From the IMG/VR virus record IMGVR_UViG_3300032330_001642, positions 1 through 63,740 of that record: 63,740 nt of DNA. One strand, 5' to 3'. Shown in pieces: positions 3,705 to 25,007 of this stretch (its first letter is position 1; every line of letters starts with the position of its first letter). The position numbers and the translations under genes are program-made. Source of the stretch: a virus. Lineage: Duplodnaviria > Caudoviricetes. The notes beneath the pieces are model-generated. The model saw nothing but the letters and a program-made list of their open reading frames with translations. It was not told the origin of the DNA and made no database searches.

Positions 3705-3715
3705 AATTTTTTATT

Positions 3716-10973: not shown

Positions 10974-11001
10974 AAAAAACCCCCAAGTTTCCTTGGAGGT
11001 T
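10974..11001 (-). terminator. terminator ending tRNA operon A
   Basis: AACCTCCAAG-GAAA-CTTGGGGGTT followed by a T tract on the minus strand. Confidence 0.7.
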
Positions 11002-11010
11002 ATATTGATA

Positions 11011-11120
11011 TACGTAGGGTTTACGGGTACCTACCCTGATTAATGACAATCAGACCGTCGTTCACTGTTTGTGAGAACCTAACGACAGATACTGTATTTG
11101 CTCACACGCAAGTATCTCCT
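11011..11120 (-). ncRNA. candidate structured RNA with kissing loops
   Basis: hairpins AGATACT/AGTATCT, GTCGTT/AACGAC and CTGATT/AATCAG; loop complementarity TGTGAG/CTCACA. Confidence 0.45.
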
Positions 11121-11122
11121 TG

Positions 11123-11194
11123 TGGTCCCGGGGAATCACGATATCCCAACCTTTTCGTTATGAGCGAACTGCTCCACCTTTGAGCTACGAGACC
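11123..11194 (-). tRNA. tRNA-CAT (Ile2 or Met), atypical T-loop
   Basis: GGTCTCG/CGGGACC acceptor; TTCG-CTCATAA-CGAA anticodon arm; T-loop ATCGTGA. Confidence 0.8.
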
Positions 11195-11233
11195 AATTAT
11201 GGGTTTTTAGTGTACCCATAAACACTTGAATAA

Positions 11234-11464
11234 CTATTGGTGGTGTTTGATATACCTACCAAATTTATCAACCCTCACAGAGAGTTTCTCCAATCTAAAG
11301 TTCCATTGTTTGAACTTTCCTAAGCCCGATTTCATTCGTGCTTGTTTAATCGCAGATTCTTCTGCCTTCTCACGTCCGTCTTCCGTAGTTTCTACGAAAA
11401 ACGTGGGAGCCTGAACACCGTATCTCACGGGAACTACTCTCCAAATTCTCAATTTCTGAGTCAT
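11234..11464 (-). CDS. small basic protein behind a TAG-uORF/hairpin switch
   Basis: 76-aa ORF whose start abuts a hairpin containing the uORF stop. Confidence 0.7.
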   Translation of the reverse strand: MTQKLRIWRVVPVRYGVQAPTFFVETTEDGREKAEESAIKQARMKSGLGKFKQWNFRLEKLSVRVDKFGRYIKHHQ

Positions 11465-11484
11465 AATACTTGAATAATCAAGTA

Positions 11485-11514
11485 CTACGTGGAGTTTGGT
11501 TGTTGGTTTTTCAT
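11485..11514 (-). promoter_or_regulatory. uORF MKNQQPNST-TAG with its stop in a 10-bp hairpin
   Basis: TAGTACTTGA-TTAT-TCAAGTATTA ends on the A of the downstream ATG. Confidence 0.65.
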
Positions 11515-11648
11515 ATTAGTAATATAATCAATTAAATATAAATATCAAACATATGGAGGTCTATCTCCTCAACATTTTCATTGGTACTGTTTTATGTGTG
11601 CCTCACGTGATTACTAATGTCACTGTCGCTTTAATGTTTGAAATTTTG

Positions 11649-11728
11649 TATCCCCGGTGGGAGTCGAACCCACACGCCGAAGCAACAAGTTTTAAGCCTG
11701 TCGTGTATACCAGTTTCACCACGGGGAT
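11649..11728 (-). tRNA. tRNA-Leu(TAA)
   Basis: cloverleaf; loop CTTAAAA; long variable arm. Confidence 0.92.
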
Positions 11729-11948
11729 GTGTTTCCCCCAATGAGATTAGTTTGGGGTAGATATTCTCGGTTTTTCCTATTGAAATACCCTACGCGTCTT
11801 ACCGCTTAAAAAGTCAACCATTACTAGGAGGTGAGTTGGTAGTCTCCCTATTAACCCTAAGACCCCCTCTGTAAAACCGTTTGAGGCGTCAGCTACATCT
11901 TTGTTTAAGAAACGATGCCAAATCTGTTGAGTATCTCTCACTCAATTG

Positions 11949-12041
11949 TAGTCAGGACAGGACTCGAACCTGTAAGTACAGTTATACAGAACTGTGCATC
12001 CCTGTATGGATATTGCGTCTAACCAATTCCGCCACCCGACT
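11949..12041 (-). ncRNA. tRNA-Leu-like scaffold with non-canonical anticodon arm
   Basis: AGTCGGG-TGGCGGAATTGGTTAGACGC...ACAGG-TTCGAGT-CCTGT-CCTGACT; loop ATACAG is not a 7-nt anticodon loop. Confidence 0.7.
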
Positions 12042-12267
12042 ATATAGGACACGGGTTCGGTTTCCCCATATGTGTCCATACTTTTAGTAGTTGTGTTATT
12101 TTAAGAGAAATAACCCGGTACCCACCGAAGAACCCGTATTTTTTGTTCCGCACAAAAATTTGTAAAAAGGCCGTATTGTCGTTTAGTCTATTTCAACCGT
12201 CCGAGTTCTACATTTTACATCCAAGAACCCATACCCTCATACGAAGAGAACGAAAGTGGATGACCTG

Positions 12268-12344
12268 ATGGTAAGGTGGGATTCGAACCCACATCCTTTC
12301 GGCCAACTAAGACCGAACGCTTTCACCATTTGAGCTTCTTACCA
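12268..12344 (-). ncRNA. tRNA-like RNA with enlarged anticodon loop
   Basis: TGGTAAG/CTTACCA acceptor, canonical T arm, TTCGG-TCTTAGTTGG-CCGAA (10-nt loop). Confidence 0.7.
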
Positions 12345-12574
12345 AACATTTTGGAAAAACTGATGGTTACGTTTACCATCTTTGACTTGAGTTTGTCTTT
12401 ATCATTTTTCCGTTTTTTTTGAGAGATTTCCTCTTGAAGTAATGTCAATCTCGTCCTAAACCACACCATCCTTTCTTTTAAGGCTAAGAAACTTCTAACT
12501 ACCTATTTGTCCCCACTGATTTTTCTTAACCACAAAAAACAGACTCACAAACTGAACTCACAAAAAACGACTCG

Positions 12575-12691
12575 TGGATAGAGTAGGATTCGAACCTACA
12601 ATAGTACCATACTTTTTCACCTGCCGGTTACTTCAAGGACTCGAACCTCATATTCCGATGCCTCGGACGCTTTACCATTTACCACCTACCC
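12575..12691 (-). ncRNA. tRNA-like RNA with a second, nested T arm
   Basis: GGGTAGG/TCTATCC acceptor; internal GAGG-TTCGAGT-CCTT plus terminal GTAGG-TTCGAAT-CCTAC; no anticodon loop. Confidence 0.6.
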
Positions 12692-12697
12692 ATTTTG

Positions 12698-12769
12698 AGC
12701 TTCCACGAGGAATCGAACCCCGTTATCTTGTGTACAAAACAAGCACATCACCATTTATGTTTTGGAAGC
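12698..12769 (-). tRNA. tRNA-Thr(TGT)
   Basis: cloverleaf; CTTGT-TTTGTAC-ACAAG. Confidence 0.88.
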
Positions 12770-12995
12770 CTGTCGCAGAGTATTTTTTTAAAGTAGAAGT
12801 CAACTCTGTCTCTTAAACTACTTATTGGTACTGGCACGGTTTCGGCCGAAACTCGGATTTGTACTTCATCCACAGGAATACCTGTCGCCAATTTCTTTAA
12901 CATCATCACTTCGGCCACATTGGGAGAACCGCAGTTCCCACGTTGTTTAAGGAGGTAGTTGGCGGTGTATCACACCGAGTTATGATAATGTATTG

Positions 12996-13069
12996 TACCC
13001 CAGGAGGGACTTGAACCCTCAAAAAACAATTTCTAAGACTGCCGTGTCTACCTATTCCACCACCGGGGC
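12996..13069 (-). tRNA. tRNA-Leu(TAG) lacking a long variable arm
   Basis: class II-type D arm; loop CTTAGAA; variable region is only a short T run. Confidence 0.8.
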
Positions 13070-13183
13070 TTTTTGGTGGGGCTCGACCCCACCTGTTTGA
13101 ATTACTTGCGATATGCTCTCACCCTTTTTCACCCAACTAGTATTTAGTGTGTGAGACCAAACTACCCTCATTCAACCCTTTTG

Positions 13184-13256
13184 TACCCCCAACTGGATTT
13201 GAACCAATATCGGACATCTTAGAAGGATGTGGCATTTCCATTTATGCTATGGAGGC
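13184..13256 (-). tRNA. tRNA-Arg(TCT)
   Basis: ACATC-CTTCTAA-GATGT. Confidence 0.9.
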
Positions 13257-13433
13257 AATTAAAATACTGCTGTGGAGCATCACCACAATCCACTACAAGG
13301 TTTTCCCCACTTTGGGCTGGCCGACCCAGGTTATGCCCTTATACCTTAACCTACGATTCTCTGCAGTTACGTAGCTCACTCAGGTGTGTGATAACAGGTG
13401 CTTATTTCATACCTATTTACGTCGTATTTTTTG

Positions 13434-13506
13434 AGACGATAGTCGGATTCGAACCGACATTATTCCACATTGGAAGTGTGGTGCCATACCTTTAGGCGAT
13501 ACCGTC
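13434..13506 (-). tRNA. tRNA-Gly(TCC), atypical acceptor stem
   Basis: CCACA-CTTCCAA-TGTGG; acceptor GACGGTA/TATCGTC. Confidence 0.8.
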
Positions 13507-14176
13507 ATTTTTTCTTTATAACTCGACCTAATCTCCATCCTTTAGGGATTAAATCACCTTTATAAATTTTTTTATTATCTGAACCATTAGTAATCCAACA
13601 AGTTCCGTATTGGGAATTTTTATTACCTTTTTGTTTTATTGAATTTTTCTTACCAATATTTTTTTTAGATTCTTCTTTATGTTTTTTACCTTTGAATGTT
13701 GAATGATTAAAACCGATTTCTTTTAATCGTTTCTTTATTTTTTCACTGTTTTCTTTTTGGTCATTTTCACTTAAAGAATTTTGATAATTTTTTGATATTA
13801 TTTTTCTAAAATCTTTACCGTATTTTTTTTCTAATATCTCATCAGTTATTCTTCTACCTTTTTTAACGGCTTTTAGATTAACAAAACCCCCTTGACCACC
13901 TTCTTTGAGATTCATACATAATTTATCTGTTAATAAAATTTTATTAACAATTTCACTCTCTCTAATTATCAGTTTTTCTCTTGTTGGTAAAAATTCTAAA
14001 ATTTCTTTTATATGATTTTCTTTCCCATACTTTCTAATAGAATATCTCAATCTTTTACCACTCCCTAAATAACCATCCTCTAAATTAGAGGTACTGTGCA
14101 TACCTATGTAATATCTTTTAGTTATATTACAAATTGTCTTGTAAATATAATGTATGTGAGGTTTTTTTCTTCCCAT
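13505..14176 (-). mobile_element. free-standing GIY-YIG homing endonuclease (Seg-like) with NUMOD3-like motif
   Basis: YIYKTICNITKRYYIGMH..YLGSG; FKGKKHKEESKKNIG; sits between two tRNA-Gly genes. Confidence 0.88.
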
Positions 14177-14233
14177 TTTGTCCTTTTATTATAAATATCT
14201 TAACCCATAGTAAAAGTACAAAAAAGTTCTCGG

Positions 14234-14305
14234 AGCGAGTAGAGAGAATCAAACTCTCGTCCTTAGGTTGGAAGCCTAATATAATAATCACTATACGATA
14301 CTCGC
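14234..14305 (-). tRNA. tRNA-Gly(TCC)
   Basis: GCGAGTA acceptor; TTAGG-CTTCCAA-CCTAA. Confidence 0.9.
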
Positions 14306-14391
14306 AGTTAAGATGAACTTCGGACTTGTGTACCGAATGAGACCCTTTAATTAAATCACTAACCCCGGGTGCGGTCTATTCATCTATTTTT

Positions 14392-14565
14392 TTATAACTT
14401 AGATTGGAGAATCCCCATCTCTTTTTCGATTCTTTTCTTATCAGAATCTGTTAATGGAACTTTTACGTCCCTTGTACCTTTTTGTGTTTTCACACCACTT
14501 TTCAGTTGGTGTTCTAACATAGACAATACTCTTGATTGTCTTGACCTTTGTTGAACTGTCGCCAT
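14392..14565 (-). CDS. small basic hypothetical protein (57 aa)
   Basis: MATVQQRSRQSRVLSMLEHQLKSG...; below ORF-track cutoff. Confidence 0.6.
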   Translation of the reverse strand: MATVQQRSRQSRVLSMLEHQLKSGVKTQKGTRDVKVPLTDSDKKRIEKEMGILQSKL

Positions 14566-14591
14566 ACGTTGGTTTTTAGATTAATAATTAG

Positions 14592-14664
14592 TAGCGGGAG
14601 GAGGACTCGAACCTCCGACCTTATGGTTATGAGCCACACGAGCTGCCAACTGCTCTATCCCACG
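14592..14664 (-). tRNA. tRNA-Met(CAT), initiator-like
   Basis: C1:T72 mismatch and fMet-like D arm; only two G-C pairs at the base of the anticodon stem. Confidence 0.85.
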
Positions 14665-14678
14665 ATGTTTATTCTTAG

Positions 14679-14748
14679 TAGCGTAGCGTGGACTCGAACC
14701 ACCCCCCAAGCTTATGAGACTTAGATGCAACCTTTACACTTTAACGCA
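14679..14748 (-). tRNA. degenerate tRNA-Met(CAT)
   Basis: loop CTCATAA and T arm present; weak acceptor pairing. Confidence 0.55.
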
Positions 14749-14758
14749 ATTTATTGTT

Positions 14759-14882
14759 TGTAATTAACATAGGCGGAACTCAAATCCTCTTACTCTTGTT
14801 TCCACGTTACCATATCATAAATTACCGAAGGATTATCCGTAACTTATTAGGCTCTCCCGCTAAGGACATTATGTTAATTACA
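14759..14882 (-). ncRNA. candidate structured RNA closed by a 13-bp stem
   Basis: TGTAATTAACATA/TATGTTAATTACA terminal inverted repeat. Confidence 0.5.
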
Positions 14883-14886
14883 TTTT

Positions 14887-14994
14887 GCTGATTAGTAAGG
14901 ATTTGAACCTTAATCCTCCTTCCCTTGTTGCCGTACATAATCTAGGGACTCGAACCCTAGCGGGGGATGGTGTGCACCATTACACTATAATCAA
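14887..14994 (-). ncRNA. tRNA-like RNA with a T-arm hairpin in place of the anticodon arm
   Basis: TTGATTA/TAATCAG acceptor, GTGT/ACAC D stem, internal CTAGGG-TTCGAGT-CCCTAG, terminal TAAGG-TTCAAAT-CCTTA. Confidence 0.6.
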
Positions 14995-15043
14995 TCGATG
15001 GTTTCGAACCCATCAGTCATAGGTTAATTACTCCTATGGTTTG

Positions 15044-15115
15044 CGGTCTATGAGAGAATCGAACTCTCATCTCTACCGTGACAGGGTAGCATCCTAGCCG
15101 TTGAACGAATAGACC
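15044..15115 (-). tRNA. tRNA-Asp(GTC)
   Basis: CTACC-CTGTCAC-GGTAG. Confidence 0.92.
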
Positions 15116-15244
15116 AAAATTACCTTTACATTTCAAAGGTTAATCAGGTTTAGTTGTGAACTTTCCTTTCAGTCGTTGTCTCATTTTTTTACGGGTCTTG
15201 TTATACGACAATTTCAACACATTGACCATACGTGTTGACAATCG

Positions 15245-15315
15245 TGGACACAGTGGGAATCGAACCCAAAACAATCTGATTGCAAATCAGTTGGACTGCC
15301 GTTGTCATCTGGCCC
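15245..15315 (-). tRNA. tRNA-Ala(TGC), irregular
   Basis: loop TTTGCAA; G3:U70 present; bulged acceptor. Confidence 0.7.
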
Positions 15316-15320
15316 ATACG

Positions 15321-15499
15321 ACACTTTATCAGATAGTGAGAAACTGGCTTTGTGTATTAAGGGAACACGATATGCTTAAAACCTCTTGTAGCCCCACCGG
15401 GAGTCGAACCCGACTTTTATGGATGAAAACCATATGTCCTAACCGATAGACGATAGGGCCAAATAACACTTTATCAGATAGTGAGAAACTGGCCTTGTG
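15321..15499. repeat. 28-bp identical repeat (15321-15348, 15466-15493) downstream of each tRNA-Glu
   Basis: ACACTTTATCAGATAGTGAGAAACTGGC occurs twice. Confidence 0.9.
15389..15460 (-). tRNA. tRNA-Glu(TTC)
   Basis: TATGG-TTTTCAT-CCATA. Confidence 0.92.
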
Positions 15500-15531
15500 C
15501 AATTAATGGGACACGTGGCTCATAACCATTG

Positions 15532-15603
15532 TAGCCCGTACGGGTTTCGAACCCGTGCCTCCTGATAGAAAGTCAGACGTGTTTACCTCTTCACTAACGG
15601 GCC
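15532..15603 (-). tRNA. tRNA-Glu(TTC)
   Basis: TCTGA-CTTTCTA-TCAGG. Confidence 0.88.
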
Positions 15604-15611
15604 ATTTTGTA

Positions 15612-15660
15612 TTACCAATATTTCAAATAACTTGTTTCTTTTTGATGGTACAAAGATAAT
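15612..15660 (-). promoter_or_regulatory. Bacteroidota-type promoter (TATCTTTG) plus boxA-like leader of tRNA operon A
   Basis: TAnnTTTG at 15651-15658; 25-mer AACAAGTTATTTGAAATATTGGTAA identical to 21672-21696. Confidence 0.7.
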
Positions 15661-15699
15661 ACTTTATTTCATTATACCAAACTTTTTTTAATCTTTTTT

Positions 15700-15852
15700 T
15701 TATCCTTCTCTATCTTCGATAGAAAACCCTGCACTATCGTATTCAGGTCCTTGGTCTTCTTCCGGAGTGACATTTACCAATCCGTATGTTACACCTAATA
15801 TGGGCGAATATTCCATCCCTAACTCTTCATTCATCGTTTTTTTGTCCGACAT
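15700..15852 (-). CDS. small acidic hypothetical protein (50 aa)
   Basis: MSDKKTMNEELGMEYSP...; TATCTTTG upstream. Confidence 0.5.
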   Translation of the reverse strand: MSDKKTMNEELGMEYSPILGVTYGLVNVTPEEDQGPEYDSAGFSIEDREG

Positions 15853-15915
15853 AATAATTACATTTTTAATTCGATACAAAGATAATACTTTTTTTTAATT
15901 CTCCAAATATAATGT

Positions 15916-15945
15916 AAAAAAAAATCCATCTCTTTTGGAGATGGA
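15916..15945 (-). terminator. attenuator terminator of leader A
   Basis: TCCATCTC-CAAAA-GAGATGGA followed by T9. Confidence 0.85.
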
Positions 15946-15980
15946 CCTTATCAGTTATTATTATGTTACTTAACAATACA

Positions 15981-16055
15981 TCATACCATCTCCGACCGAG
16001 TTGTATCTCTACCCTCCGCTCCTGTTAATAATAGTATTGTATTTAATGTTTGCAT
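15981..16055 (-). promoter_or_regulatory. leader peptide A (MQTLNTILLLTGAEGRDTTRSEMV)
   Basis: 24-aa ORF before the terminator; GGAGATGG is complementary to the terminator 5' arm; codons match operon A tRNAs. Confidence 0.8.
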
Positions 16056-16134
16056 TTTCTGTGTTATTGTAATTTTCTAATAAATATATACCTTTTTATA
16101 AAAGTGTCAAGTATTGGTAAAAAAAATTATAAAA

Positions 16135-16345
16135 AAAGTTTAACAACCCCGCCCTCGGGTCGTAGCGGGCAACTTGAGAATTACTTCTCGTGGGAATTCC
16201 GGAATTGGTTGTGTTCCTCACCGGCGTACCAGTCCTTATCTATCCTTTACCGTATTTATACGGTGCTACTGTTGGGAGGTCACCCCTATCAACACAACTA
16301 GTCCATTAGTTTTTAAGAGTATGGACACCCCGGTTGTTAAACTTT
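16135..16345 (-). ncRNA. candidate ~210-nt structured RNA
   Basis: 14-bp closing stem AAAGTTTAACAACC/GGTTGTTAAACTTT, GC-rich internal hairpins, no convincing ORF. Confidence 0.55.
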
Positions 16346-16353
16346 TTATTTTG

Positions 16354-16500
16354 TAAAAACAGACAGAATGATTTTCCGATATTTATCTTAGGGGCATCCT
16401 AGCAGTCACTCTACTTACCCTCGGCGGTCTCTTGGTTTGATTGACAATTCCAAACCTCACATCCATATTACCACTGATGTAAGTTATAGGTCTGTTTTTA
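16354..16500 (-). ncRNA. candidate structured RNA
   Basis: 11-bp closing stem TAAAAACAGAC/GTCTGTTTTTA. Confidence 0.45.
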
Positions 16501-16568
16501 TTTCTTCAGGAGAGACCCCCAAGGGATAACCATAACGGAATTACCCTTGACTCACTCTCCGTCTTCTG

Positions 16569-16637
16569 CACGCCATCAAAGAATCGAACTCTGTCCTATG
16601 GGTTTGGAATCCATTTGGCTACCTTAGCCTATGACGT
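16569..16637 (-). tRNA. tRNA-Trp(CCA)
   Basis: ATGGA-TTCCAAA-CCCAT; short D arm. Confidence 0.75.
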
Positions 16638-16645
16638 ATTTGTTG

Positions 16646-16715
16646 AGGTCTCGGTGAGAATCGAACTCACTCCGCTGATTTTGCAGACCAGCCGGCCGCC
16701 ACGACCATCAAGACC
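16646..16715 (-). tRNA. tRNA-Cys(GCA)
   Basis: loop CTGCAAA; U73. Confidence 0.85.
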
Positions 16716-16784
16716 ATTTAACCTACGACCCAAGGAACAGGAATTGTGTCCATAACATTCAATAAGCACTGTAGGTTTTCTATT

Positions 16785-17384
16785 TTAATCTAAACTACTT
16801 GGTAAATAAAGTAGTGTTGGATTTTTCTTTTGGATATCAACATCCGGGTAAAGTTTCTTAAACTCCAATACGTTGAACTTTCCGGTGATTATATGAAAAC
16901 CATTTTTTGTTGGAATCACTTTTTCAACTTTATTACCTACCGGTTGTATGTCATCTAAATCATTTAAGATTTTAATTAAAAACTTTTGGTCTGTAGTATC
17001 AACATCAACAATCCATCTTTTTTCCTGTGTTTTGATTTGACCCACAACCGAATCAAATAAACCCTTTTGGTTTTTTACACCATTTTTAATTCTCTCAGCT
17101 AACGACATCATCATTTCTAATGAAACATCCATATGGTTTTGTTTCTGAACGTGGATGTAAGCTCTTGCCTTGAACATCTCACATAATTGTTTGATTTCAT
17201 CGTATCTCTTATCAAGATGTTCTATACTATCAATACAATATGTTTTGATTGTTCTAACCGATTGGTGATTATCTCTCTCACCTTCAGGTTGGTCTTTCTT
17301 TCTCTTGAAAACGTATAACATATAGAAATCGTTTTTGTCCGAGAAATTCAGTAATTCTTTGATTTCTTTTATATTATCTATCAT
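16785..17384 (-). CDS. hypothetical protein, possible AEP primase-like fold
   Basis: WIVDVD and PTKNGFH motifs. Confidence 0.5.
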   Translation of the reverse strand: MIDNIKEIKELLNFSDKNDFYMLYVFKRKKDQPEGERDNHQSVRTIKTYCIDSIEHLDKRYDEIKQLCEMFKARAYIHVQKQNHMDVSLEMMMSLAERIKNGVKNQKGLFDSVVGQIKTQEKRWIVDVDTTDQKFLIKILNDLDDIQPVGNKVEKVIPTKNGFHIITGKFNVLEFKKLYPDVDIQKKNPTLLYLPSSLD

Positions 17385-17385
17385 C

Positions 17386-17628
17386 TTAATATCCTATTTC
17401 ATCTTTAATCTTCCACTGTTCTTCCGGGGTCAATCTTTCAATTCTCTCAACCGGAACAAATCCATCTAATCTTTGTTCTTTAACATCTTCAAAATGTTCT
17501 ATGGTATCCAAACGATACCCGAACTTATATCGGATGTATTGAAACTTCTCTCCGTCCCAATAAGCCATATAATTGTTTCTACAGAAACCCTTATACCACC
17601 CTTCTTTCATTTCATTTTTTGGTATCAT
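17386..17628 (-). CDS. hypothetical protein
   Basis: 80-aa ORF in an operon-like run. Confidence 0.65.
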   Translation of the reverse strand: MIPKNEMKEGWYKGFCRNNYMAYWDGEKFQYIRYKFGYRLDTIEHFEDVKEQRLDGFVPVERIERLTPEEQWKIKDEIGY

Positions 17629-17643
17629 TATTTCTAATATTTT

Positions 17644-18486
17644 TTAATTTTCAGTTTCTAATCGTTTAATAACATCTTTAATATTGATATATGATGTTAA
17701 AATTGTTGGTAACCCAAGAAGAGAGTTACAAAAATCAAACATATATCTGTACGTTGAGAATACACTTCCCACACTCACTTTATTGTACATTACGTAGTAT
17801 GTTAATAATGCCGTCACACTTCCGTATACAATCGCTTGAATCCAAATTGAGAACTTAGAATCTATCACTGATAACTTAATTGATAATTGTTGTCCTCTTC
17901 TTAATAAGTTATTAACTGATGATATTTTTCTAGTATTAATAATTTGAGTTTGTTCTTCAGATAAATCGTTATTCAAACTTGTAACCGCTGCTATCCTTGG
18001 TGAGTAATAAAAACTAACACCCAAGATTAAAACCGAGGTAATCATTAAGAATCCAACTATCGGTAAACTTACCATCGCCAAGAAGTAAATTGCTCCAACC
18101 AAACCAATTATTGTTTGTAATACAACCAACATATCTCTCTCAAAAAAATGAACGATATAATTCATTAAGGTCAATCTTCCGTTAATCTTTGTTGTCTCAA
18201 CACCGTTCTCAATTTGTTTGTGAGTTTCAATTGATGCAAATCGTCTATAAATCCCGGAGAATACTCTAACATCGTAAATTCTACTGATGTACCCGAAAAA
18301 CATAATGGCAACAAATGTTGAAACCAAATACCAAATGTACGAATAGTCTTTTGCTATCAAGTGGTCAATCGCATTACCCAAAACCTTTGGATAAATAACC
18401 ATCAAAATCGCATTCACCATAAACAACGAATATGAAAATACAATAGATTTCCAATTCTCCTTAAACATTACTTTTAACTTATTCAT
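17644..18486 (-). CDS. ABC transporter transmembrane-domain-like protein (no ATPase)
   Basis: about 6 TM helices; YPKVLGNAID, RIYDVRVFSGIY, SVGSVFS patterns. Confidence 0.7.
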   Translation of the reverse strand: MNKLKVMFKENWKSIVFSYSLFMVNAILMVIYPKVLGNAIDHLIAKDYSYIWYLVSTFVAIMFFGYISRIYDVRVFSGIYRRFASIETHKQIENGVETTKINGRLTLMNYIVHFFERDMLVVLQTIIGLVGAIYFLAMVSLPIVGFLMITSVLILGVSFYYSPRIAAVTSLNNDLSEEQTQIINTRKISSVNNLLRRGQQLSIKLSVIDSKFSIWIQAIVYGSVTALLTYYVMYNKVSVGSVFSTYRYMFDFCNSLLGLPTILTSYINIKDVIKRLETEN

Positions 18487-18542
18487 ATCTTTCCGTTTTA
18501 ATTTTGACAAAGATACAACTAAATTTTAATCTGCCAAATTTT

Positions 18543-19049
18543 TTAGAATAATAAATATGGTTCCCATTCTTCCGGGATGTAATGAACCTGTCTCATCAAC
18601 ATTAAATAATGTGGTCGTCTTGGTTGAGGGATTTCTTTTCCATACTCCTCTAACGTTAAATTTGACTTCTCACTATTACATTTTCTACAAGCGGTTACCA
18701 AGTTGTCCCACGCGTCTTTACCACCCTTAGATTGGGGTATTACGTGGTCTAATGTCAAAGTTTTACGATTGTCACACCCACAATAAACACAGGTATAACC
18801 ATCTCTTCTATAAACATTCTCTCTGTTCAAAGGAACTTTATGAATCGGTTGATTCACATATTTGTAAACCCTAATAATTGAAGGTTTTTTGATATCCAAT
18901 TCAGGATTGATTAACTTGAATGATTCCGGATGTTCGGCAATAACACTTGCATTACCTTTATAAGAAATTACAAAAGCCCTCTCAGTGTTTATGATAGACC
19001 TTGGCATAAAACTTGAATCCAAAACCAATGTTTTTCCGTACTTACTCAC
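18543..19049 (-). CDS. HNH endonuclease (McrA-like)
   Basis: RDGYTCVYCG, LTLDHVIP, WDNLVTACRKCN. Confidence 0.9.
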   Translation of the reverse strand: MSKYGKTLVLDSSFMPRSIINTERAFVISYKGNASVIAEHPESFKLINPELDIKKPSIIRVYKYVNQPIHKVPLNRENVYRRDGYTCVYCGCDNRKTLTLDHVIPQSKGGKDAWDNLVTACRKCNSEKSNLTLEEYGKEIPQPRRPHYLMLMRQVHYIPEEWEPYLLF

Positions 19050-19085
19050 GACTTTTGATTTTTAATTAAACATTCTTTTTATTTG

Positions 19086-19157
19086 TTCCCCCGCCGAGAG
19101 TCGAACTCGGCCCCATAGATTAAAAGTCTATTGCCTACACCAGTTTGCTACGAGGGA
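19086..19157 (-). tRNA. tRNA-Lys(TTT)
   Basis: ATAGA-CTTTTAA-TCTAT. Confidence 0.88.
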
Positions 19158-19240
19158 TTATTGAGCTCATTATACCTTAACATTGGGCTCAAAATCTCAC
19201 TTATTTGAGCTTAATAATTATGGTTTGTGAGCCACATTTG

Positions 19241-19312
19241 TCGTTACGGATGGATTCGAACCATCGACCACTGAAGTATCAGTTCAGCACTCTACCACTG
19301 AGTTACGTAACG
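19241..19312 (-). tRNA. tRNA-Ile(GAT)
   Basis: CTGAA-CTGATAC-TTCAG. Confidence 0.9.
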
Positions 19313-19318
19313 AAATTG

Positions 19319-19395
19319 TCGGGATAGCAGGATTCGAACCTGCGAGTTCTCCTGCTCCCAAAGCAGGCGGGGTAACCGGACTCCCCAATATCCCG
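19319..19395 (-). tRNA. tRNA-Pro(TGG)
   Basis: CCTGC-TTTGGGA-GCAGG. Confidence 0.9.
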
Positions 19396-19401
19396 AGTAA
19401 T

Positions 19402-19461
19402 TAACTACCATTTGACTCTTTTCGAACTTTGGAGGCTCGTATCATTCCTTAATGGTAGTTA
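19402..19461 (-). ncRNA. repeated small structured element, copy 1
   Basis: closing stem around core GAATGATACGAG...TCGAAARGAGTCA, shared with 20756-20813. Confidence 0.55.
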
Positions 19462-19466
19462 TTTTG

Positions 19467-19539
19467 TCTAAATGGCTGGACTCGAACCAGCGGTCTCTAC
19501 GGTCCAAGTGTAGCGGATTACCAACTTTCCCACATCTAG
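19467..19539 (-). tRNA. tRNA-Pro(TGG)
   Basis: CTACA-CTTGGAC-CGTAG. Confidence 0.85.
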
Positions 19540-19546
19540 AATTTAA

Positions 19547-19726
19547 TTATATTTTTAATTTTCCTGAACGATAATCTTCCACCATTTGTTTCAGTCTCTC
19601 GTCTCTTTTTTCCATCATCTTTCTGATTTTCTCAGTTCTTTCAGGACTTGGGTTAGAATCAATTGTATAAACCACCCCCATTTTATCTAATTCATTTAAG
19701 AATTCTTTTGTTTCAAATTTTTTCAT
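19547..19726 (-). CDS. small hypothetical protein
   Basis: ORF between tRNAs; start MKKFETKE. Confidence 0.6.
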   Translation of the reverse strand: MKKFETKEFLNELDKMGVVYTIDSNPSPERTEKIRKMMEKRDERLKQMVEDYRSGKLKI

Positions 19727-19740
19727 AACTTTATGTTTTG

Positions 19741-19827
19741 CGGAGAACAAGGGAATCGAACCCTCACCGGTTTTACCCGGAACATCTTAGCAGGATGCCA
19801 CTACGAACCAATATTAGACTATTCTCC
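19741..19827 (-). tRNA. tRNA-Ser(GCT)
   Basis: loop CTGCTAA; long variable arm; G73. Confidence 0.9.
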
Positions 19828-19834
19828 ATTTTTG

Positions 19835-19921
19835 CGCAGATGGTAGGAGTCGAACCCACTCGGAAACTTGCGTTTCATACATAAGATTTGGAGTCTTACC
19901 GGCTACCTCAGCCTCACCTGC
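19835..19921 (-). tRNA. tRNA-Trp(CCA) with a long variable arm
   Basis: TAAGA-CTCCAAA-TCTTA; variable hairpin GAAAC-GCAA-GTTTC. Confidence 0.75.
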
Positions 19922-20000
19922 ATAAATTAATAGGATATCGCTTAACCTATCCGTGACTTGGCCCTGTCACTTAACTCGTGTTACCGAGACGATTTTTTTG

Positions 20001-20072
20001 TGTCCCCAAGAGGATTCGAACCCCTATCTTCAAGTCCGTAGCCTGACGTTCTGTCCGTTGAACTATGGAGAC
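20001..20072 (-). tRNA. tRNA-Arg(ACG)
   Basis: TCAGG-CTACGGA-CTTGA. Confidence 0.9.
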
Positions 20073-20176
20073 AATTTGAGGTTGAGAACTCCTCTGTGTT
20101 AGTCTTTACTAGTTGTTGCAACAACCTTGTAGCCACTCTATTTTCCTTTCTCAAGGGAACAACACATTTTAATTTA

Positions 20177-20270
20177 AGTATTCACACAAGGTGTTAGTTT
20201 TATGGGAGTTCTACTGCAGATGTGCCCAAAAGTGACTTACCTAACACGGACTCCATTCCCCGTGAATACT
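20177..20270 (-). ncRNA. candidate structured RNA
   Basis: AGTATTCAC/GTGAATACT closing stem and inner GTGTTAG/CTAACAC stem. Confidence 0.45.
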
Positions 20271-20457
20271 ATTTCCACTGAGTTTTTCGGTTATACTTCC
20301 AAGTTTTATAACTTCTGTATTTAATTGACGAATGTCCTTTCTTGAAATTTAATCCCTCATCCCAATAGGGTGGAAATTCTTCTTTTAACCAAATTACTCT
20401 GTACTCTTTTGAACAAGTTGCCTTGTCCAACTTTTTTCTGTTTGTGTTTACACTCAT
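20269..20457 (-). CDS. small basic protein behind a TGA-uORF/hairpin switch
   Basis: 62-aa K/R/W-rich ORF with its start directly after a hairpin. Confidence 0.7.
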   Translation of the reverse strand: MSVNTNRKKLDKATCSKEYRVIWLKEEFPPYWDEGLNFKKGHSSIKYRSYKTWKYNRKTQWK

Positions 20458-20485
20458 AATCTCTGAGTCTGTTGTTTAGCAGACC

Positions 20486-20512
20486 TCAAAGATTGTCAAA
20501 TACCTTTTTCAT
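20486..20512 (-). promoter_or_regulatory. uORF MKKVFDNL-TGA with its stop in a hairpin
   Basis: AATCTTTGAGGTCTG-CTAAACAA-CAGACTCAGAGATT immediately followed by ATG. Confidence 0.65.
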
Positions 20513-20528
20513 AATATTTTTTTATTTG

Positions 20529-20601
20529 GGTGACTAAGGAGAATCGAACTCCCACCTTCAGAACCACAATCTAACATACTAACCGTTATACTATAGCCAC
20601 C
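20529..20601 (-). tRNA. tRNA-His(GTG)
   Basis: loop TTGTGGT; G-1:C73. Confidence 0.9.
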
Positions 20602-20677
20602 ATATATACCCCCTTCACCGGCTTAACGGACCGGCTGCCATATGGGAGTGGGGGTTTCCCGTTATTTCGGGACTCCG

Positions 20678-20749
20678 CGGACTTGGGGAATTTTGAAATC
20701 CCGACCTCGATGTTAACAGCATCTTGCTCTTCCTCTGAGCTACAAGTCC
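20678..20749 (-). tRNA. tRNA-Asn(GTT)
   Basis: GATG-CTGTTAA-CATC; T-loop TTCAAAA. Confidence 0.85.
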
Positions 20750-20755
20750 AATTTT

Positions 20756-20813
20756 GACTACTACCTGACTCCTTTCGAGCTTATGAAACTCGTATCATTC
20801 AATCTTAGTAGTC
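20756..20813 (-). ncRNA. repeated small structured element, copy 2
   Basis: GACTACTA/TAGTAGTC stem around the same core as 19402-19461. Confidence 0.55.
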
Positions 20814-20897
20814 CAAGGCTGTAGGAGCTCATCTTTACACTTAGGCTTTTTGTCTTCTCGATTCCGGAATCTTACGACCGTAGCGTCACCTTGTTTG

Positions 20898-20970
20898 TGG
20901 TTCCCCGGGGAATCGAACCCCATCCTTTAGATTTTCAGTCTAACGTACAGACCACTTATACCAGAGAACC
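20898..20970 (-). tRNA. tRNA-Phe(GAA)
   Basis: TTAGA-CTGAAAA-TCTAA. Confidence 0.9.
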
Positions 20971-20974
20971 AAAT

Positions 20975-21114
20975 AATGATAATGTTGAAGTACCCGTTTC
21001 GCTTCAATCTTGACTGCTTAATCATAGTTTTATGGTGCACCGGCAGAGGGTTATGAATTCTTGAACCTATCTTGGATTGTCGACATCCGAGAGATAGAGA
21101 AAACCATTATCATT
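20975..21114 (-). ncRNA. candidate structured RNA
   Basis: AATGATAATG/CATTATCATT closing stem with internal hairpins. Confidence 0.45.
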
Positions 21115-21116
21115 GG

Positions 21117-21197
21117 TGGAAAGTAGTGGACTCGAACCACTCCCGTAAGGACCTGATTTACAGTCAGGTTGCCGTATCCGAACGACTTTTACTTTCC
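21117..21197 (-). tRNA. tRNA-Tyr(GTA)
   Basis: CCTGA-CTGTAAA-TCAGG; variable arm; encoded CCA follows. Confidence 0.9.
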
Positions 21198-21202
21198 TTT
21201 TG

Positions 21203-21273
21203 TACCCCGAGATGGAATTGAACCACCACCATTTGTATGTAAGACAAATACGCTTCCATTACGCCATCGGGGC
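21203..21273 (-). tRNA. tRNA-Val(TAC)
   Basis: TTTGT-CTTACAT-ACAAA. Confidence 0.9.
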
Positions 21274-21279
21274 AAATTG

Positions 21280-21347
21280 TACCGAGAAATGGTAATGCTC
21301 CATTCTATAGTCGGATATGAGCCGTCTATGGTCCTTGACCTCTCGAT
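21280..21347 (-). tRNA. atypical tRNA-Met(CAT) with minimal D arm
   Basis: ATCGAGA/TCTCGGT acceptor; loop CTCATAT; D arm GGTC-AAG-GACC; T-loop AGCATTA. Confidence 0.6.
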
Positions 21348-21402
21348 GTTTTTGGTGGACATAGGCTCATCACCTACTCTTGGGTTTCCACCGAACCCTT
21401 CG

Positions 21403-21474
21403 TTACCCCTGAGAGAATCGAACTCCCACCGCGTGGACCAAAACCACGTGTACTAACCGTTATACGAAGGGGCA
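21403..21474 (-). tRNA. tRNA-Gln(TTG)
   Basis: CGTGG-TTTTGGT-CCACG; U1:A72. Confidence 0.9.
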
Positions 21475-21575
21475 ATAATATTTTAGTTAAAGAACGGTTA
21501 CCACAATTACGTTCGCCCCGGACACTACTCCGGACATTCTGTTTTGGGTGTGGATTAAACTATTTAACTAACCCG

Positions 21576-21663
21576 CGGAAGGAGTGGGACTCGAACCCAC
21601 ACGTGTGTTACCACCAACGGTTTTCAAGACCGCGACCCGTAGACCAACTTGGCTTACCCTTCC
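21576..21663 (-). tRNA. tRNA-Ser(TGA)
   Basis: GCGGT-CTTGAAA-ACCGT; long variable arm. Confidence 0.92.
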
Positions 21664-21671
21664 ATTTTTTC

Positions 21672-21722
21672 TTACCAATATTTCAAATAACTTGTTCCTT
21701 TATTTTGATGGGACAAAGGTAA
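21672..21722 (-). promoter_or_regulatory. Bacteroidota-type promoter (TACCTTTG) plus boxA-like leader of tRNA operon B
   Basis: TAnnTTTG at 21714-21721; 25-mer identical to 15612-15636. Confidence 0.7.
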
Positions 21723-21753
21723 TCCTTTTTTTTTAACTTTCAAACTTTTTTAC

Positions 21754-21789
21754 AAAAAAAAATCCTGAACTTTTTAGATTCAGGATTTT
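21754..21789 (-). terminator. attenuator terminator of leader B
   Basis: AAAATCCTGAA-TCTAAAAAG-TTCAGGATTTT followed by a T tract. Confidence 0.85.
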
Positions 21790-21811
21790 GGTATATGGTT
21801 ATGTTAACTTC

Positions 21812-21934
21812 TTATATAGTTGTCAAGTCATCCAATAAAACATCTGAATCTGTATGCGAGGTACGCGGATACGAACAATTACTAAATTGTTGTTTCCAAA
21901 TCACGACGTTCATATGTTTATTAGTGTTTCTCAT
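21812..21934 (-). promoter_or_regulatory. leader peptide B (MRNTNKHMNVVIWKQQFSNCSYPRTSHTDSDVLLDDLTTI)
   Basis: 40-aa ORF before the terminator; AGATTCAG is complementary to terminator CTGAATCT; codons match operon B tRNAs. Confidence 0.8.
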
Positions 21935-22028
21935 TTTTTCTAAATTTTGTGGTATCTCTACCTGTTGTTTCTTATAATTATATCAAACTTACGAAAAGTT
22001 TAATAAAAGTCAAATATTTTTTTTTATT

Positions 22029-22412
22029 TTAGCATTTTTTCAAACATAATCTAAAATATTTCTCACCGGGTCTATTAGAATAGAAGTAAAATACTACATT
22101 ATCATCATTTCTTTTCTCCATTATAATTCTAATACTTGATTCATCACCATCATCATCTATCAGGGTATATAAATAATTATATTGTCGGACAAACAATTGT
22201 TTTGATTTAACGTACATTTTATAATTACGTTTTTCAGTAATTATTGAAATTGTGTGTGATTCTTTATCCTCATAAAAAACTACTTCTCCGGGTATGTTTC
22301 TAATGTCCCACCCATCAGCCGTTCTCATATCAACAGTCTTAAACTCAAATCTTTTTTCTTGTGAGAATGAAGAAAAAGATAAGGTTAGTAACAATAAAAT
22401 TAAAAACCTCAT
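22029..22412 (-). CDS. secreted hypothetical protein
   Basis: Bacteroidota-type signal peptide ending FSQ. Confidence 0.65.
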   Translation of the reverse strand: MRFLILLLLTLSFSSFSQEKRFEFKTVDMRTADGWDIRNIPGEVVFYEDKESHTISIITEKRNYKMYVKSKQLFVRQYNYLYTLIDDDGDESSIRIIMEKRNDDNVVFYFYSNRPGEKYFRLCLKKC

Positions 22413-22675
22413 ACAAGTTTGTTTGCGATGTTAATAATAATACTTTCGTCCTCGTTGGATAATAGATGTTTTGAAAATCTAAGCTTTGTTAGTGATTCAT
22501 CCCATTCTAATTCCATTGCACTTGTACCTTCTTTAGTTGGTACTGCTTTACCATTGAATCGGGCCAAATGACCATCTTCAATTAAAGTTTCTATTAATTC
22601 ATCAATTTCACGACGACTACACTCGGAAATATATTCCCAAGGCTCAATATCGATTTCTGTACTAAAATCTGGCAT
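22409..22675 (-). CDS. hypothetical protein
   Basis: ORF. Confidence 0.65.
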   Translation of the reverse strand: MPDFSTEIDIEPWEYISECSRREIDELIETLIEDGHLARFNGKAVPTKEGTSAMELEWDESLTKLRFSKHLLSNEDESIIINIANKLV

Positions 22676-22677
22676 AA

Positions 22678-22941
22678 TTATAAATTTTCTAAATAGTTAA
22701 TAATTTTTGTAACTTGTTCTTTTGAATTCCATCCTGAAACATCATCACCATCCGGCATTGGCACAAACTTACCTAATGTCTTGTAGAGTGCGGCAACTTC
22801 AAATGAAGTTTTCCCATTTCCGTATAACCCGTTACCACCAACAACGGAAACTTCAATATCGTTTCCTAAATCTAATCTTGCTTGAACGGCACCTCTACCG
22901 ATAGCGTGTGGTTTGAATACTAAATCGTCAAATGTTTTCAT
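22678..22941 (-). CDS. hypothetical protein
   Basis: ORF; TATATTTG directly upstream. Confidence 0.65.
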   Translation of the reverse strand: MKTFDDLVFKPHAIGRGAVQARLDLGNDIEVSVVGGNGLYGNGKTSFEVAALYKTLGKFVPMPDGDDVSGWNSKEQVTKIINYLENL

Positions 22942-22981
22942 AGGGCAAATATATTACTTTTTTTTATAACACCAAAAAAAA

Positions 22982-23158
22982 TTAATGTTTTTTTACTAAA
23001 TATTTGTGACCCGAATCTGAATTAACCTCAAAAATCTCTTTCATTTTTAACGCTTCTTCTTCAGTTTCAAAAGTCATTATCTCAGAATAAGAATCAACTA
23101 AAATCACCGGTAATTCAACTCCGGTGTGGAATTTAACCATTTTTACTATTACCCACAT
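22982..23158 (-). CDS. small hypothetical protein (58 aa)
   Basis: MWVIVKMVKFHTGVELPVILVDSYSE...; TATTTAT upstream. Confidence 0.55.
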   Translation of the reverse strand: MWVIVKMVKFHTGVELPVILVDSYSEIMTFETEEEALKMKEIFEVNSDSGHKYLVKKH

Positions 23159-23285
23159 AATTTTTTTTTATAAGTATAAATAAAAAACAAAAAGGTGTCA
23201 AATGACACCCTTTTGCTAGATTTGGAATCTCCCCCTTTCTTTTTAGTTGGTTAATCCCATCCGGTTTCTACACCGAAGGTAAGTT

Positions 23286-25007
23286 TTAGCCCGCAATTGC
23301 TTTATCTTTCATAGTATCAGCAACTGTAGACATCTTTTGTGCCACACCACCAAGTAGTGGACATATAATGTGAGATAAACCGCTTTCAAGTTTCTTAGCG
23401 AATTCTGTACTGTCTAAATGGTCTATCATACTATTTCTAACTAAATCGGCTAACACACCTGAAACACCTTTACTGTCTGCGAATTTTTTAACAACTGCTT
23501 CAGTGATAGATTTAGCTAAAAGTTTTGTTGTAAAATCACAATTTGTTAATTGTGTTATTTCACCTATTTTAAGGTTACCGACGGTTGTTACGATAATATT
23601 TCCAATCCAACTATCTTTTTGACCCGGAGCAACCGCATCAATTAACCAAGTAGCCATTTTTTCTTTGAACCATCCTCCAATAACATCTGTCGATGGGAAT
23701 AAACCTTTTAATATTTCCCAAAACCCTTCATTGATTAATCCTTTATCAAAACCTTGAGAGTTCATATAAAACATTTCCGAAATAACTTCATTAAATAATT
23801 TATCTTTATCTTCAATTTTTGATTCTGAAATAATTTGGAATCTTGTGTTAATAATTTTAGATTCACCAATTAGTTTGTTTTTCTTTTCTTCTGATAATGT
23901 AACTAAATTTTCTTTAATTAAATCTTTTAATTTGTCTTTTTTAGACTCAGCAATTTGTTGTCCAATAATGTATGGGTTAGGTCTTTTTAATACATTTGAT
24001 TCACCCGCTAATATATTTTTTATATTATTCCAACTAAGAACTTTTCCTTGTCTAAAGAATCCAAACGGAGAATTTTTTGCAGAAAAATCAACATAATCTG
24101 ATAACTCAGCTTGATTTACACCGGTAAATCCACTTGCCTCATCATACGCTCCTGCATTTTTACATCTAACAATATATGGTTTGTATTGTTGAATTGTTGG
24201 GTTAATACTACCACCATTCATTTGCCAATCCATAGCAGTACCTAAGTATTGTAATAAATCAGTTTTACACGTTGCAGCGTCAACTTTTGTTTTATTAAAA
24301 GTAACATCCGGAGCAACTCCTTTTGGCATATAAATTGGGAAATCTTGACCTTGGAATGATAAATTACCAAATCTTTGAATATCTGTTAATCTGTCATATT
24401 TTGTTTGTAATTCACTTTTATCAATTGTTGGTGTAAAAGGTGTTGTAGGGTCTTTAGGTTTTAATTGATGTTTTGTATAATCATTAGGAAAATAATAAGT
24501 TAACATATCATTCCAAATTCTAAATAAGTTAGATACGGCACCTTTATCAATATATTCCTGTAATTTTTTAGTCACTTGATTCAAGTAGAAATAAACATCT
24601 GTTTGAGGGTCATCCGGATTTAATCCAAATTGAGTTAAAACATTACTAAATTGTAATTGTAATCCCGTATCAGGAATACCATCAATTAAATATGGTTTGT
24701 TTTGTGCATCTAATTTATATTTATAAACCGCGTCTGATATCTTAACTAAAATTCTACCATCGTAAGTCAAATAAATTGTATCTTTTCCCGGTCTTTCATA
24801 CATCTTAGCTGCGTAATATTTTCTGTTACCAACTTGAATTGCTCTTGGATTTCCATCAGGATATAATGCTAAATTAGATAATACTCCTTTACCTCTTAAT
24901 ATACCGTTGTTTTGTAATATATCTAACTCACCTTTTGGTGCGTTAACTACATTTTTCATACCAGAGTCAACAGGTTGTGTCGCTTGTTCTTTTATATTTT
25001 TTTTCAT
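23286..25007 (-). CDS. large hypothetical protein (possibly virion-internal)
   Basis: 573-aa ORF with LKDLIKENL and INEG motifs. Confidence 0.7.
   Translation of the reverse strand: MKKNIKEQATQPVDSGMKNVVNAPKGELDILQNNGILRGKGVLSNLALYPDGNPRAIQVGNRKYYAAKMYERPGKDTIYLTYDGRILVKISDAVYKYKLDAQNKPYLIDGIPDTGLQLQFSNVLTQFGLNPDDPQTDVYFYLNQVTKKLQEYIDKGAVSNLFRIWNDMLTYYFPNDYTKHQLKPKDPTTPFTPTIDKSELQTKYDRLTDIQRFGNLSFQGQDFPIYMPKGVAPDVTFNKTKVDAATCKTDLLQYLGTAMDWQMNGGSINPTIQQYKPYIVRCKNAGAYDEASGFTGVNQAELSDYVDFSAKNSPFGFFRQGKVLSWNNIKNILAGESNVLKRPNPYIIGQQIAESKKDKLKDLIKENLVTLSEEKKNKLIGESKIINTRFQIISESKIEDKDKLFNEVISEMFYMNSQGFDKGLINEGFWEILKGLFPSTDVIGGWFKEKMATWLIDAVAPGQKDSWIGNIIVTTVGNLKIGEITQLTNCDFTTKLLAKSITEAVVKKFADSKGVSGVLADLVRNSMIDHLDSTEFAKKLESGLSHIICPLLGGVAQKMSTVADTMKDKAIAG

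Follow-up and report, generated by a model that had tools for sequence, protein, structure and literature searches.

Leader-peptide attenuators are known from amino-acid operons, among them trpL, hisL, leuL, thrL, pheL and the multivalent ilvL; pheL has been described as such an attenuator (PMC3082878). The leader peptide pheM of pheST also acts on a component of the decoding machinery, but its target is a protein gene and it responds to a single amino acid. T-box riboswitches likewise read the state of tRNA through a terminator-antiterminator switch; they differ in that each binds one uncharged tRNA directly and is without an ORF, and in that the genes regulated are those of synthetases, biosynthesis or transporters. 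The Bacteroid-trp leader motif of Rfam shows that leader-peptide attenuation exists in the likely host phylum of the virus studied here, but the only regulatory codons in this motif are for Trp, and the genes that follow it are trp genes. Phages of the T4 type carry tRNA clusters that are likewise arrays with interspersed homing endonucleases. To our knowledge, leader-peptide control has not been described for phage tRNA clusters such as that of T4. Control by phages of their own tRNA genes is largely unknown, and the debate on why phages carry tRNAs (codon usage, host shut-off, defence escape) had no regulatory handle. No report of tRNA genes under leader-peptide control was found in the open literature searched; subscription journals were mostly outside this search, and an earlier report is not excluded.

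We analysed a 63.7-kb fragment of an uncultured virus, called hereafter the window. A short ORF within it, leader B, is likely to be a ribosome-mediated transcription attenuator placed before a phage tRNA array, with a panel of codons that matches the tRNAs encoded downstream. The ORF, the terminator, the alternative helix with its covariation, and the match between codons and tRNAs with its co-variation among relatives are shown below. As in the attenuators of amino-acid operons, a short leader ORF (translation and dependence on the ribosome being inferred here) is combined with regulatory codons, a terminator and a mutually exclusive, ribosome-dependent antiterminator. Unlike in those systems, the phage leaders precede tRNA genes and not biosynthetic enzymes, and their panels span 9-18 amino acids, mostly with single codons, whereas amino-acid attenuators carry a run for one to three. 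The signal is inferred to be tRNA supply rather than amino-acid supply. Finally, the default fold of the phage leaders is the antiterminator, no protector (1:2) helix is established, and a promoter often follows the terminator, all of which sets them apart from the amino-acid attenuators.

The window contains 29-33 tRNA genes as detected by ARAGORN and Rfam, all on the minus strand between 11122 and 21663, with an HNH endonuclease and a homing endonuclease scattered among them. They are arranged as follows.

19085-21663, minus strand: tRNA operon B, first part (ARAGORN and Rfam)
16568-16715, minus strand: tRNA-Cys and tRNA-Trp, past four ORFs (an HNH endonuclease and three others)
11122-15603, minus strand: tRNA operon A (ARAGORN and Rfam)

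The array behind leader B begins at 21663. The first part of operon B starts with Ser-tga, Gln, Val, Tyr, Phe, Asn, His and Arg-acg, and ends with an 88-nt Trp-like tRNA, Ser-gct, Pro, Pro, Ile and Lys. In operon A the order is Glu, Glu, Ala, Asp, Met, Gly, Gly, Arg-tct, Leu-tag and Thr, followed by three odd tRNAs, Leu-taa and Met. No Met tRNA was found in operon B by ARAGORN, by Rfam or by homology searches with the Met tRNAs of relatives; Met(cat) does sit in operon B of the related loci L004, L009 and L018. ARAGORN, at both default and 95% thresholds, misses a tRNA-Ala(tgc) in the window (15246-15315, minus strand) and in L018 (15985-16056), which is recovered by Rfam and by ARAGORN at lower thresholds. 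Automatic tRNA counts for this phage group are therefore slightly low, and because default-threshold ARAGORN misses some tRNAs, such as Ala, the tRNA sets carry error.

Four tRNA-like genes of the minus strand are odd (11948-12041, 12267-12344, 12575-12691 and 19834-19921). In two of them the anticodon loop is irregular, being read by ARAGORN as 'ac' and 'tagt'. A third, an Rfam tRNA match of 117 nt, possibly contains an insertion, and the fourth, 88 nt long, resembles a Trp(cca) gene and has a long extra arm. Genes similar to them are also found in relatives.

Inside the tRNA array lies a gene for a 199-aa protein (16785-17384, minus strand; phrog_14949, function unknown), also present in L111 (12001-12609) and used below as an anchor for retrieving relatives. 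It has relatives at 32-35% in Cellulophaga, Tenacibaculum, crAss-like and Lak phages, and its only cultured relatives are phages of Bacteroidota. In Cellulophaga phage phi17:2 the homologue adjoins a tRNA nucleotidyltransferase (CCA-adding enzyme) outside any tRNA array, and this neighbour hints at a tRNA-related role, which remains no more than possible. The host of the window virus is likely a member of Bacteroidota, because the Bacteroidetes-type promoter pattern is enriched and the cultured relatives of the anchor protein are in Bacteroidota phages. Elsewhere in the window, a 341-aa ORF (2679-3704, minus strand) matches phrog_562, 'RNA ligase and tail fiber attachment catalyst', of the T4 Rnl1 type (1.8e-67). 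In T4 this ligase mends tRNA cleaved by a host anticodon nuclease, and the match in the window fits a phage under tRNA-level pressure.

The features of leader B and its surroundings are the following.

21984-22014, minus strand: promoter-like element of leader B, TTTG-N19-TAnnTTTG, of the Bacteroidetes type, about 50 nt upstream of the ATG
21812-21934, minus strand: leader B ORF, 40 codons plus stop (ATG at 21934, stop at 21814-21812)
21851-21931, minus strand: sensing stretch, codons 2-28, upstream of the antiterminator (by codon count)
21844-21851, minus strand: antiterminator 5' strand, AGATTCAG (from the sequence, folding and a column-wise pairing count)
21776-21783, minus strand: antiterminator 3' strand, CTGAATCT, made up of the 5' arm and loop of the terminator (from the sequence, folding and column-wise pairing)
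21750-21789, minus strand: intrinsic terminator hairpin with T-run (MFE and centroid structures)
21714-21744, minus strand: a further promoter-like element, past the terminator and ahead of the first operon-B tRNA (pattern match)

The terminator stem (21789-21759) has 12 pairs and is followed by the T-run. It sits between the leader B ORF and operon B, and is kept in all homologues. The start ATG is invariant in 19 homologues, among which indels are of 3 or 6 nt and keep the frame. No Shine-Dalgarno sequence precedes the ATG of leader B; such sequences are generally unused in Bacteroidetes.

A prediction made from the letters of the window alone had proposed that leader B is an attenuator whose codons 5-27 include one for each tRNA type of operon B. 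Its listing of these codons held in full, as did the absence of Gly, Ala and Glu from the peptide, the restriction of Leu and Asp to positions at or after the antiterminator, the 8-nt pairing of 21844-21851 with 21776-21783 (both strands being found at those coordinates), and the location of the Cys and one Trp tRNA beyond four protein genes (16715-16568). The number of tRNA types in operon B, given as 15, did not hold: there are 14 codon families (13 amino acids) and no Met tRNA. Since operon B has no Met tRNA, the ATG at codon 8 of leader B is unmatched in the window.

All 14 of the operon-B codon families are covered in the 39 codons of leader B. Full coverage was met by 92 of 100,000 random codon strings generated from the codon usage of the long ORFs of the window, and by none of the 3,862 windows cut from long ORFs. 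It was met by 2 of the 74 small ORFs, leader B itself and an ORF antisense to a tRNA. Over the whole ORF, the fraction of codons belonging to the set was not unusual (25/39, reached by 18,633 of 100,000 random strings). The codons of the set are unevenly placed: 22 of the 26 codons before the antiterminator belong to it, versus 3 of the 13 from the antiterminator onward, and all 14 families are already covered before the antiterminator. Codon rarity in the leader B panel gave no clear signal, as 8 of the 25 panel codons end in G or C, versus 19.5% in long ORFs, and the mean synonymous fraction was 0.48 versus 0.51 expected. Taken within the window alone, the match is thus moderately unlikely by chance (about 1e-3 for coverage).

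Operon A is preceded by a paralogue of leader B, with these features.

15981-16055, minus strand: leader A ORF, 24 codons plus stop (by codon count)
15921-15949, minus strand: leader A terminator, whose 5' arm (15944-15937) pairs with 15993-15986
15700-15851, minus strand: small ORF (about 50 aa), conserved, downstream of leader A and ahead of operon A

In leader A, the 9 codon families of operon A are all covered and 17 of 23 codons belong to the set; coverage and in-set fraction were jointly met by 31 of 100,000 random strings. The small ORF downstream of it is flanked by promoter-like elements (15907-15877 and 15681-15651). Homologues of this small ORF, with a common short motif, occur in L002, L004, L005, L006 and L018; it is missing from some relatives, since an RNA-library contig of one of them joins across its place.

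Relatives were collected by a 25-nt pattern (5 loci), by the anchor protein (75 loci, 45 of them without tRNA in the fetched stretch) and by a promoter-motif pattern (30 stretches, namely L055 and 29 new loci). Four paralogous classes of leader were found on about 100 related viral contigs, and in each class the leader reflects the tRNA set behind it. The loci fetched by promoter motif were chosen regardless of any ORF, and a leader ORF was found just upstream in 28 of the 29 new ones; the sole exception, L103, has no tRNAs. With nhmmer, run on 81 sequences, leader A was detected in 23 rows and leader B in 12. No leader-terminator cassette was found in eight loci with small arrays of 1-6 tRNAs (L030/31, L057, L067/69/70, L071/72). 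Among cultured phages, near matches were limited to a tRNA-Lys; no distant DNA match to the leader region was obtained there, and no cultured system was found.

The four classes have a common N-terminal motif and mostly similar terminators. Downstream of class A leaders are tRNAs for Glu, Ala, Asp, Met, Gly, Arg-tct, Leu and Thr, and class B is the type of leader B of the window. The class C leader (L055:1258-1326) is followed only by Leu-taa, Arg-tct and Leu-tag; TTA, CTN and AGA together account for 12 of its 21 codons. Behind class D leaders lie tRNAs for Pro, Asn, Asp, Gly, Thr and Ala, the residues of which these leaders largely consist. Examples of class D are:

L056:3565-3636, rich in Asn, Asp, Pro, Ala and Gly, with Pro, Asn, Asp, Gly and Ala tRNAs downstream
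L106:1480-1575
L084:11081-11179, minus strand
L089:11628-11732, minus strand

L044 has an array of 22 tRNAs for 19 amino-acid types, of which its 48-codon leader (3591-3737) contains 18; Ala is missing from the leader, and an Ala tRNA is likewise absent from the array.

For a quantitative test, 18 representatives, one per clearly different leader, were drawn from 45 distinct candidate ORFs. Left out were close variants, the truncated leader of L108, two mis-called ORFs (L018, L007), five candidates that appeared spurious (in L030, L022, window/L003, L007 and L009), and two leader-A variants without a tRNA set assigned or in view (L012 and a row of L018, the latter re-read from its coordinates as A3_L018). 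A B-type leader of L089 (4935-5033, minus strand) was left out because the end of the locus cuts its array. Across the 18 leader-operon pairs, the leader contains a codon for 174 of the 180 tRNA amino-acid types. Leader and operon were concordant in 268 of 360 cells, versus 182 +/- 16 under a global null and 249 +/- 5 under a within-class null, and 268 was not reached in any of 20,000 permutations of either kind. When the six-fold amino acids were divided by codon (23 codon families), 181 of 188 were covered, again with 0/20,000 in both permutations. The six-fold families alone gave 5/20,000 globally and 1,155/20,000 when permuted within class, the latter not being significant. Without curation, all 36 automatically detected candidates gave 322 of 338 covered (0/10,000). 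These permutation counts overstate independence, because the sequences are related, and should not be read as probabilities. Specificity is moderate: 86 amino-acid types occur in leaders without a tRNA in their own operon, for instance Thr in all B leaders, and Lys and Gln in L091 and L110. Thr residues of a conserved N-terminal motif are among them.

Leader codons were also found to change together with the tRNA sets. Within class D, L056 has neither a Thr tRNA nor Thr codons, both of which are present in the other class D leaders, and L106 has neither an Ala tRNA nor Ala codons; Rfam revealed no extra tRNA in the class D operons of L056 or L106. In L018, Arg-tct lies in operon B, and leader B has two AGA codons whereas leader A has none. 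Neither Tyr tRNA nor Tyr codons are found in L091 and L110. Where a Glu tRNA is present, Glu codons are found in the leader, and the B type of the window has neither. Comparison of the close pair L110 and L056 gave 7 supporting substitutions and 1 contradicting, and class D pairs gave 30 supporting and 1 contradicting. Over all within-class pairs, 313 substitutions were towards the tRNA set of the owner and 149 away from it. In 17 pooled leaders, 259 of the 339 codons ahead of the antiterminator belonged to the set, versus 102 of the 178 codons in the antiterminator and beyond it (Fisher 1.3e-5); these counts include the duplexes of L044 and of class D in L089, which lie at non-homologous places and are probably wrong. 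The comparative evidence is decisive for the match between codons and tRNAs.

The antiterminator helix was examined in 19 distinct B-type leaders, by scoring the columns equivalent to 21850-21844 and 21783-21777. Pairing was kept in 97.5% of 120 cells. Four of the seven pairs showed compensatory changes, in which both sides change, in 10 cells, and the covariation score was reached by none of 500 shuffles. As a control, sliding one strand by 1-3 columns reduced pairing to 8-49%. The terminator stem does not force this covariation, because some of the target bases are in the loop of the terminator. The column-wise count was used in place of a cross-matrix of duplex energies between each leader and foreign terminators, which was not discriminating because G+C-rich terminators pair with many sequences.

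When the RNA was folded without the 3' arm of the terminator, the antiterminator helix was present in both the MFE and centroid structures, for leaders A and B. The model therefore predicts that the antiterminator is the fold of the nascent RNA before the terminator 3' arm exists. The antiterminator and the stop codon are at most about 14 nt apart in most leaders, the former usually ending 2-14 nt before the latter; in leader A its 8-bp strand ends 2 nt before the stop, and in C_L055 and D3_L056 it overlaps the stop codon or falls just after. In leader B of the window, the 5' strand ends 29 nt ahead of the stop codon. Given this 29-nt gap, a terminating ribosome would not cover the antiterminator of leader B, a steric argument that is inferred. 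A trp-like protector helix, between codons 5-9 and codons 29-34, appeared in the MFE structure of the full leader and is a prediction only.

Next, we consider how the tRNA genes may be transcribed. The pattern TTTG-N17-21-TAnnTTTG, which reflects the Bacteroidetes promoter consensus, occurs 14 times in the window versus 4.3 expected, a number reached by 0/100 shuffles. As in operon B, a promoter-like element (15681-15651) lies between the leader A terminator and the first tRNA of operon A, and the same holds generally for classes A, B and C. Dependence on read-through, in the sense of having no promoter of their own after the terminator, is therefore not met in operons A and B of the window, and the attenuator is not the sole route to transcription of the window tRNAs. 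In D1-D3 and L044, 10-20 nt without a promoter separate the T-run from the start of the first tRNA, so that read-through is the only visible route to these tRNAs. Six metatranscriptome runs hold 9-14% of sampled words; four were compared, as contigs only. Some RNA-library contigs bridge the terminators (for example 21694-21891 and 15795-16060), which does not show a transcript, its strand or its level, and DNA carry-over is possible.

The mechanism that we propose is as follows. Transcription would begin at the promoter-like element 22014-21984. By default, the nascent RNA would pair 21851-21844 with 21783-21776, occupying the 5' arm of the terminator and allowing read-through into the tRNA genes. 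A ribosome moving smoothly would cross this helix, or sit in its loop, while the terminator is being synthesized, so that the terminator forms and the leader B transcript ends at about 21750. If decoding of any panel codon (2-28) is slow for scarcity of its tRNA, the ribosome would lag, the antiterminator would persist and more tRNA would be made. The outcome would be a negative supply-and-demand feedback of the phage on its own tRNAs. Leader A (16055-15981) would act likewise for operon A. In the window, the promoter-like element after each terminator would give basal transcription of the tRNAs, to which the attenuator adds rather than acting as a gate. Translation of the leader, coupling of transcription and translation, stalling and regulated read-through are inferred. 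The original prediction of an attenuator is thus supported by the comparative evidence, while translation, regulated read-through and the response to tRNA depletion that it invoked remain inferred. Sensitivity to any single tRNA may be weak, because each has only one to four codons in the panel. Because the window encodes a T4 Rnl1-like ligase, it is also possible that the panel responds to depletion of host tRNAs, for example by anticodon nucleases.

Could leader B instead be an independent small gene, whose micropeptide or RNA of about 190 nt acts in trans, the tRNAs being transcribed from the downstream promoter? The order promoter, ORF, terminator, second promoter is what this would produce, and conservation of the N-terminal peptide parts extends across the classes. 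Trans-acting products of attenuators have been described, namely the rnTrpL sRNA and the peTrpL peptide of Sinorhizobium (PMC6614838, PMC7298713), and the small gene would resemble these attenuator-derived products. However, it leaves unexplained why the composition of the peptide tracks the tRNA set, within as well as between classes, why a covarying helix competes with the terminator, and why some terminators abut the first tRNA without a promoter. We regard it as unlikely as a replacement for attenuation, although a trans role of the leader could possibly coexist with it. Likewise improbable in our view is an untranslated, RNA-only switch that senses tRNAs, in the manner of a T-box, or a protein factor, with the open frame being incidental. 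It is favoured by the absence of a Shine-Dalgarno sequence before the ATG, and by the fact that a terminator-antiterminator alternative by itself needs no ribosome. Against it stand the invariant ATG and the frame-keeping indels of 3 and 6 nt in 19 homologues, the position of the stop codon within about 14 nt of the antiterminator, on either side, in most classes, and the absence of any T-box or other Rfam leader family at E <= 0.1. Moreover, no case is known to us in which 14 or more different tRNAs pair to one short RNA. The Rfam scan, which covered 10500-23500 at E <= 0.1, found neither a T-box nor a Trp, His, Leu, Thr or Bacteroid-trp leader family; its matches were of tRNA type (tRNA and tRNA-Sec), together with two weak Plastid-ycf2 matches antisense to tRNAs.

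The match might also be a coincidence, a small ORF of diverse composition being placed by chance in front of tRNA genes. From the window by itself, the evidence against this is moderate, with coverage at about 1e-3 and an unremarkable in-set fraction, and the window had been searched after the fact when the prediction was made. However, independent classes and lineages show the match and co-vary, no permutation reached the observed concordance, and 28 of 29 promoter-motif loci, fetched regardless of ORF, showed a leader. Coincidence is therefore very unlikely.

A bolder form of the attenuation hypothesis would hold that every tRNA array of these Bacteroidota-type phages has a codon-panel ORF of its own, sampling almost all tRNA species of that array, that read-through is the default and that fast translation shuts it off. 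It would hold at the same time that these are the first attenuated tRNA genes and the first attenuator tuned to at least a dozen tRNAs, serving to top up whichever tRNA is limiting. Taken as one joint claim, we lean towards this reading, by a narrow margin. If attenuation is true, the phage gauges the sufficiency of its tRNAs codon by codon, and the scope of attenuation extends from amino-acid supply to tRNA supply. The panel would then predict the tRNA set and vice versa, which makes it a simple reporter for experimental and bioinformatic work, and the question of demand versus defence would become testable. The leader would also offer a natural design for multi-input translational sensors.

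Three further observations concern the DNA around the arrays. A 288-aa ORF in the tRNA region (17644-18510, minus strand) matches Pfam ABC_membrane_3 (9e-19), with a promoter-like element at 18538-18508. In addition, a conserved motif is found shortly before the first tRNA in every array (21677-21701 and 15617-15641 in the window; L055:3844-3862 and relatives). In loci of the L055, L094 and L056 types, this motif is the spacer of a full TTTG-N20-TAnnTTTG promoter, which would start transcription within a few bases of the 5' end of the tRNA. The window copies have no -7 box, and look like a relic downstream of a newer promoter. In L090 (reverse strand) and L056 (8060-8180), an insert of about 100 nt separates the promoter motif from the first tRNA. 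Rfam at the gathering threshold found nothing at the L056 insert. The insert is G+C-richer than its surroundings and is conserved between two leader types.
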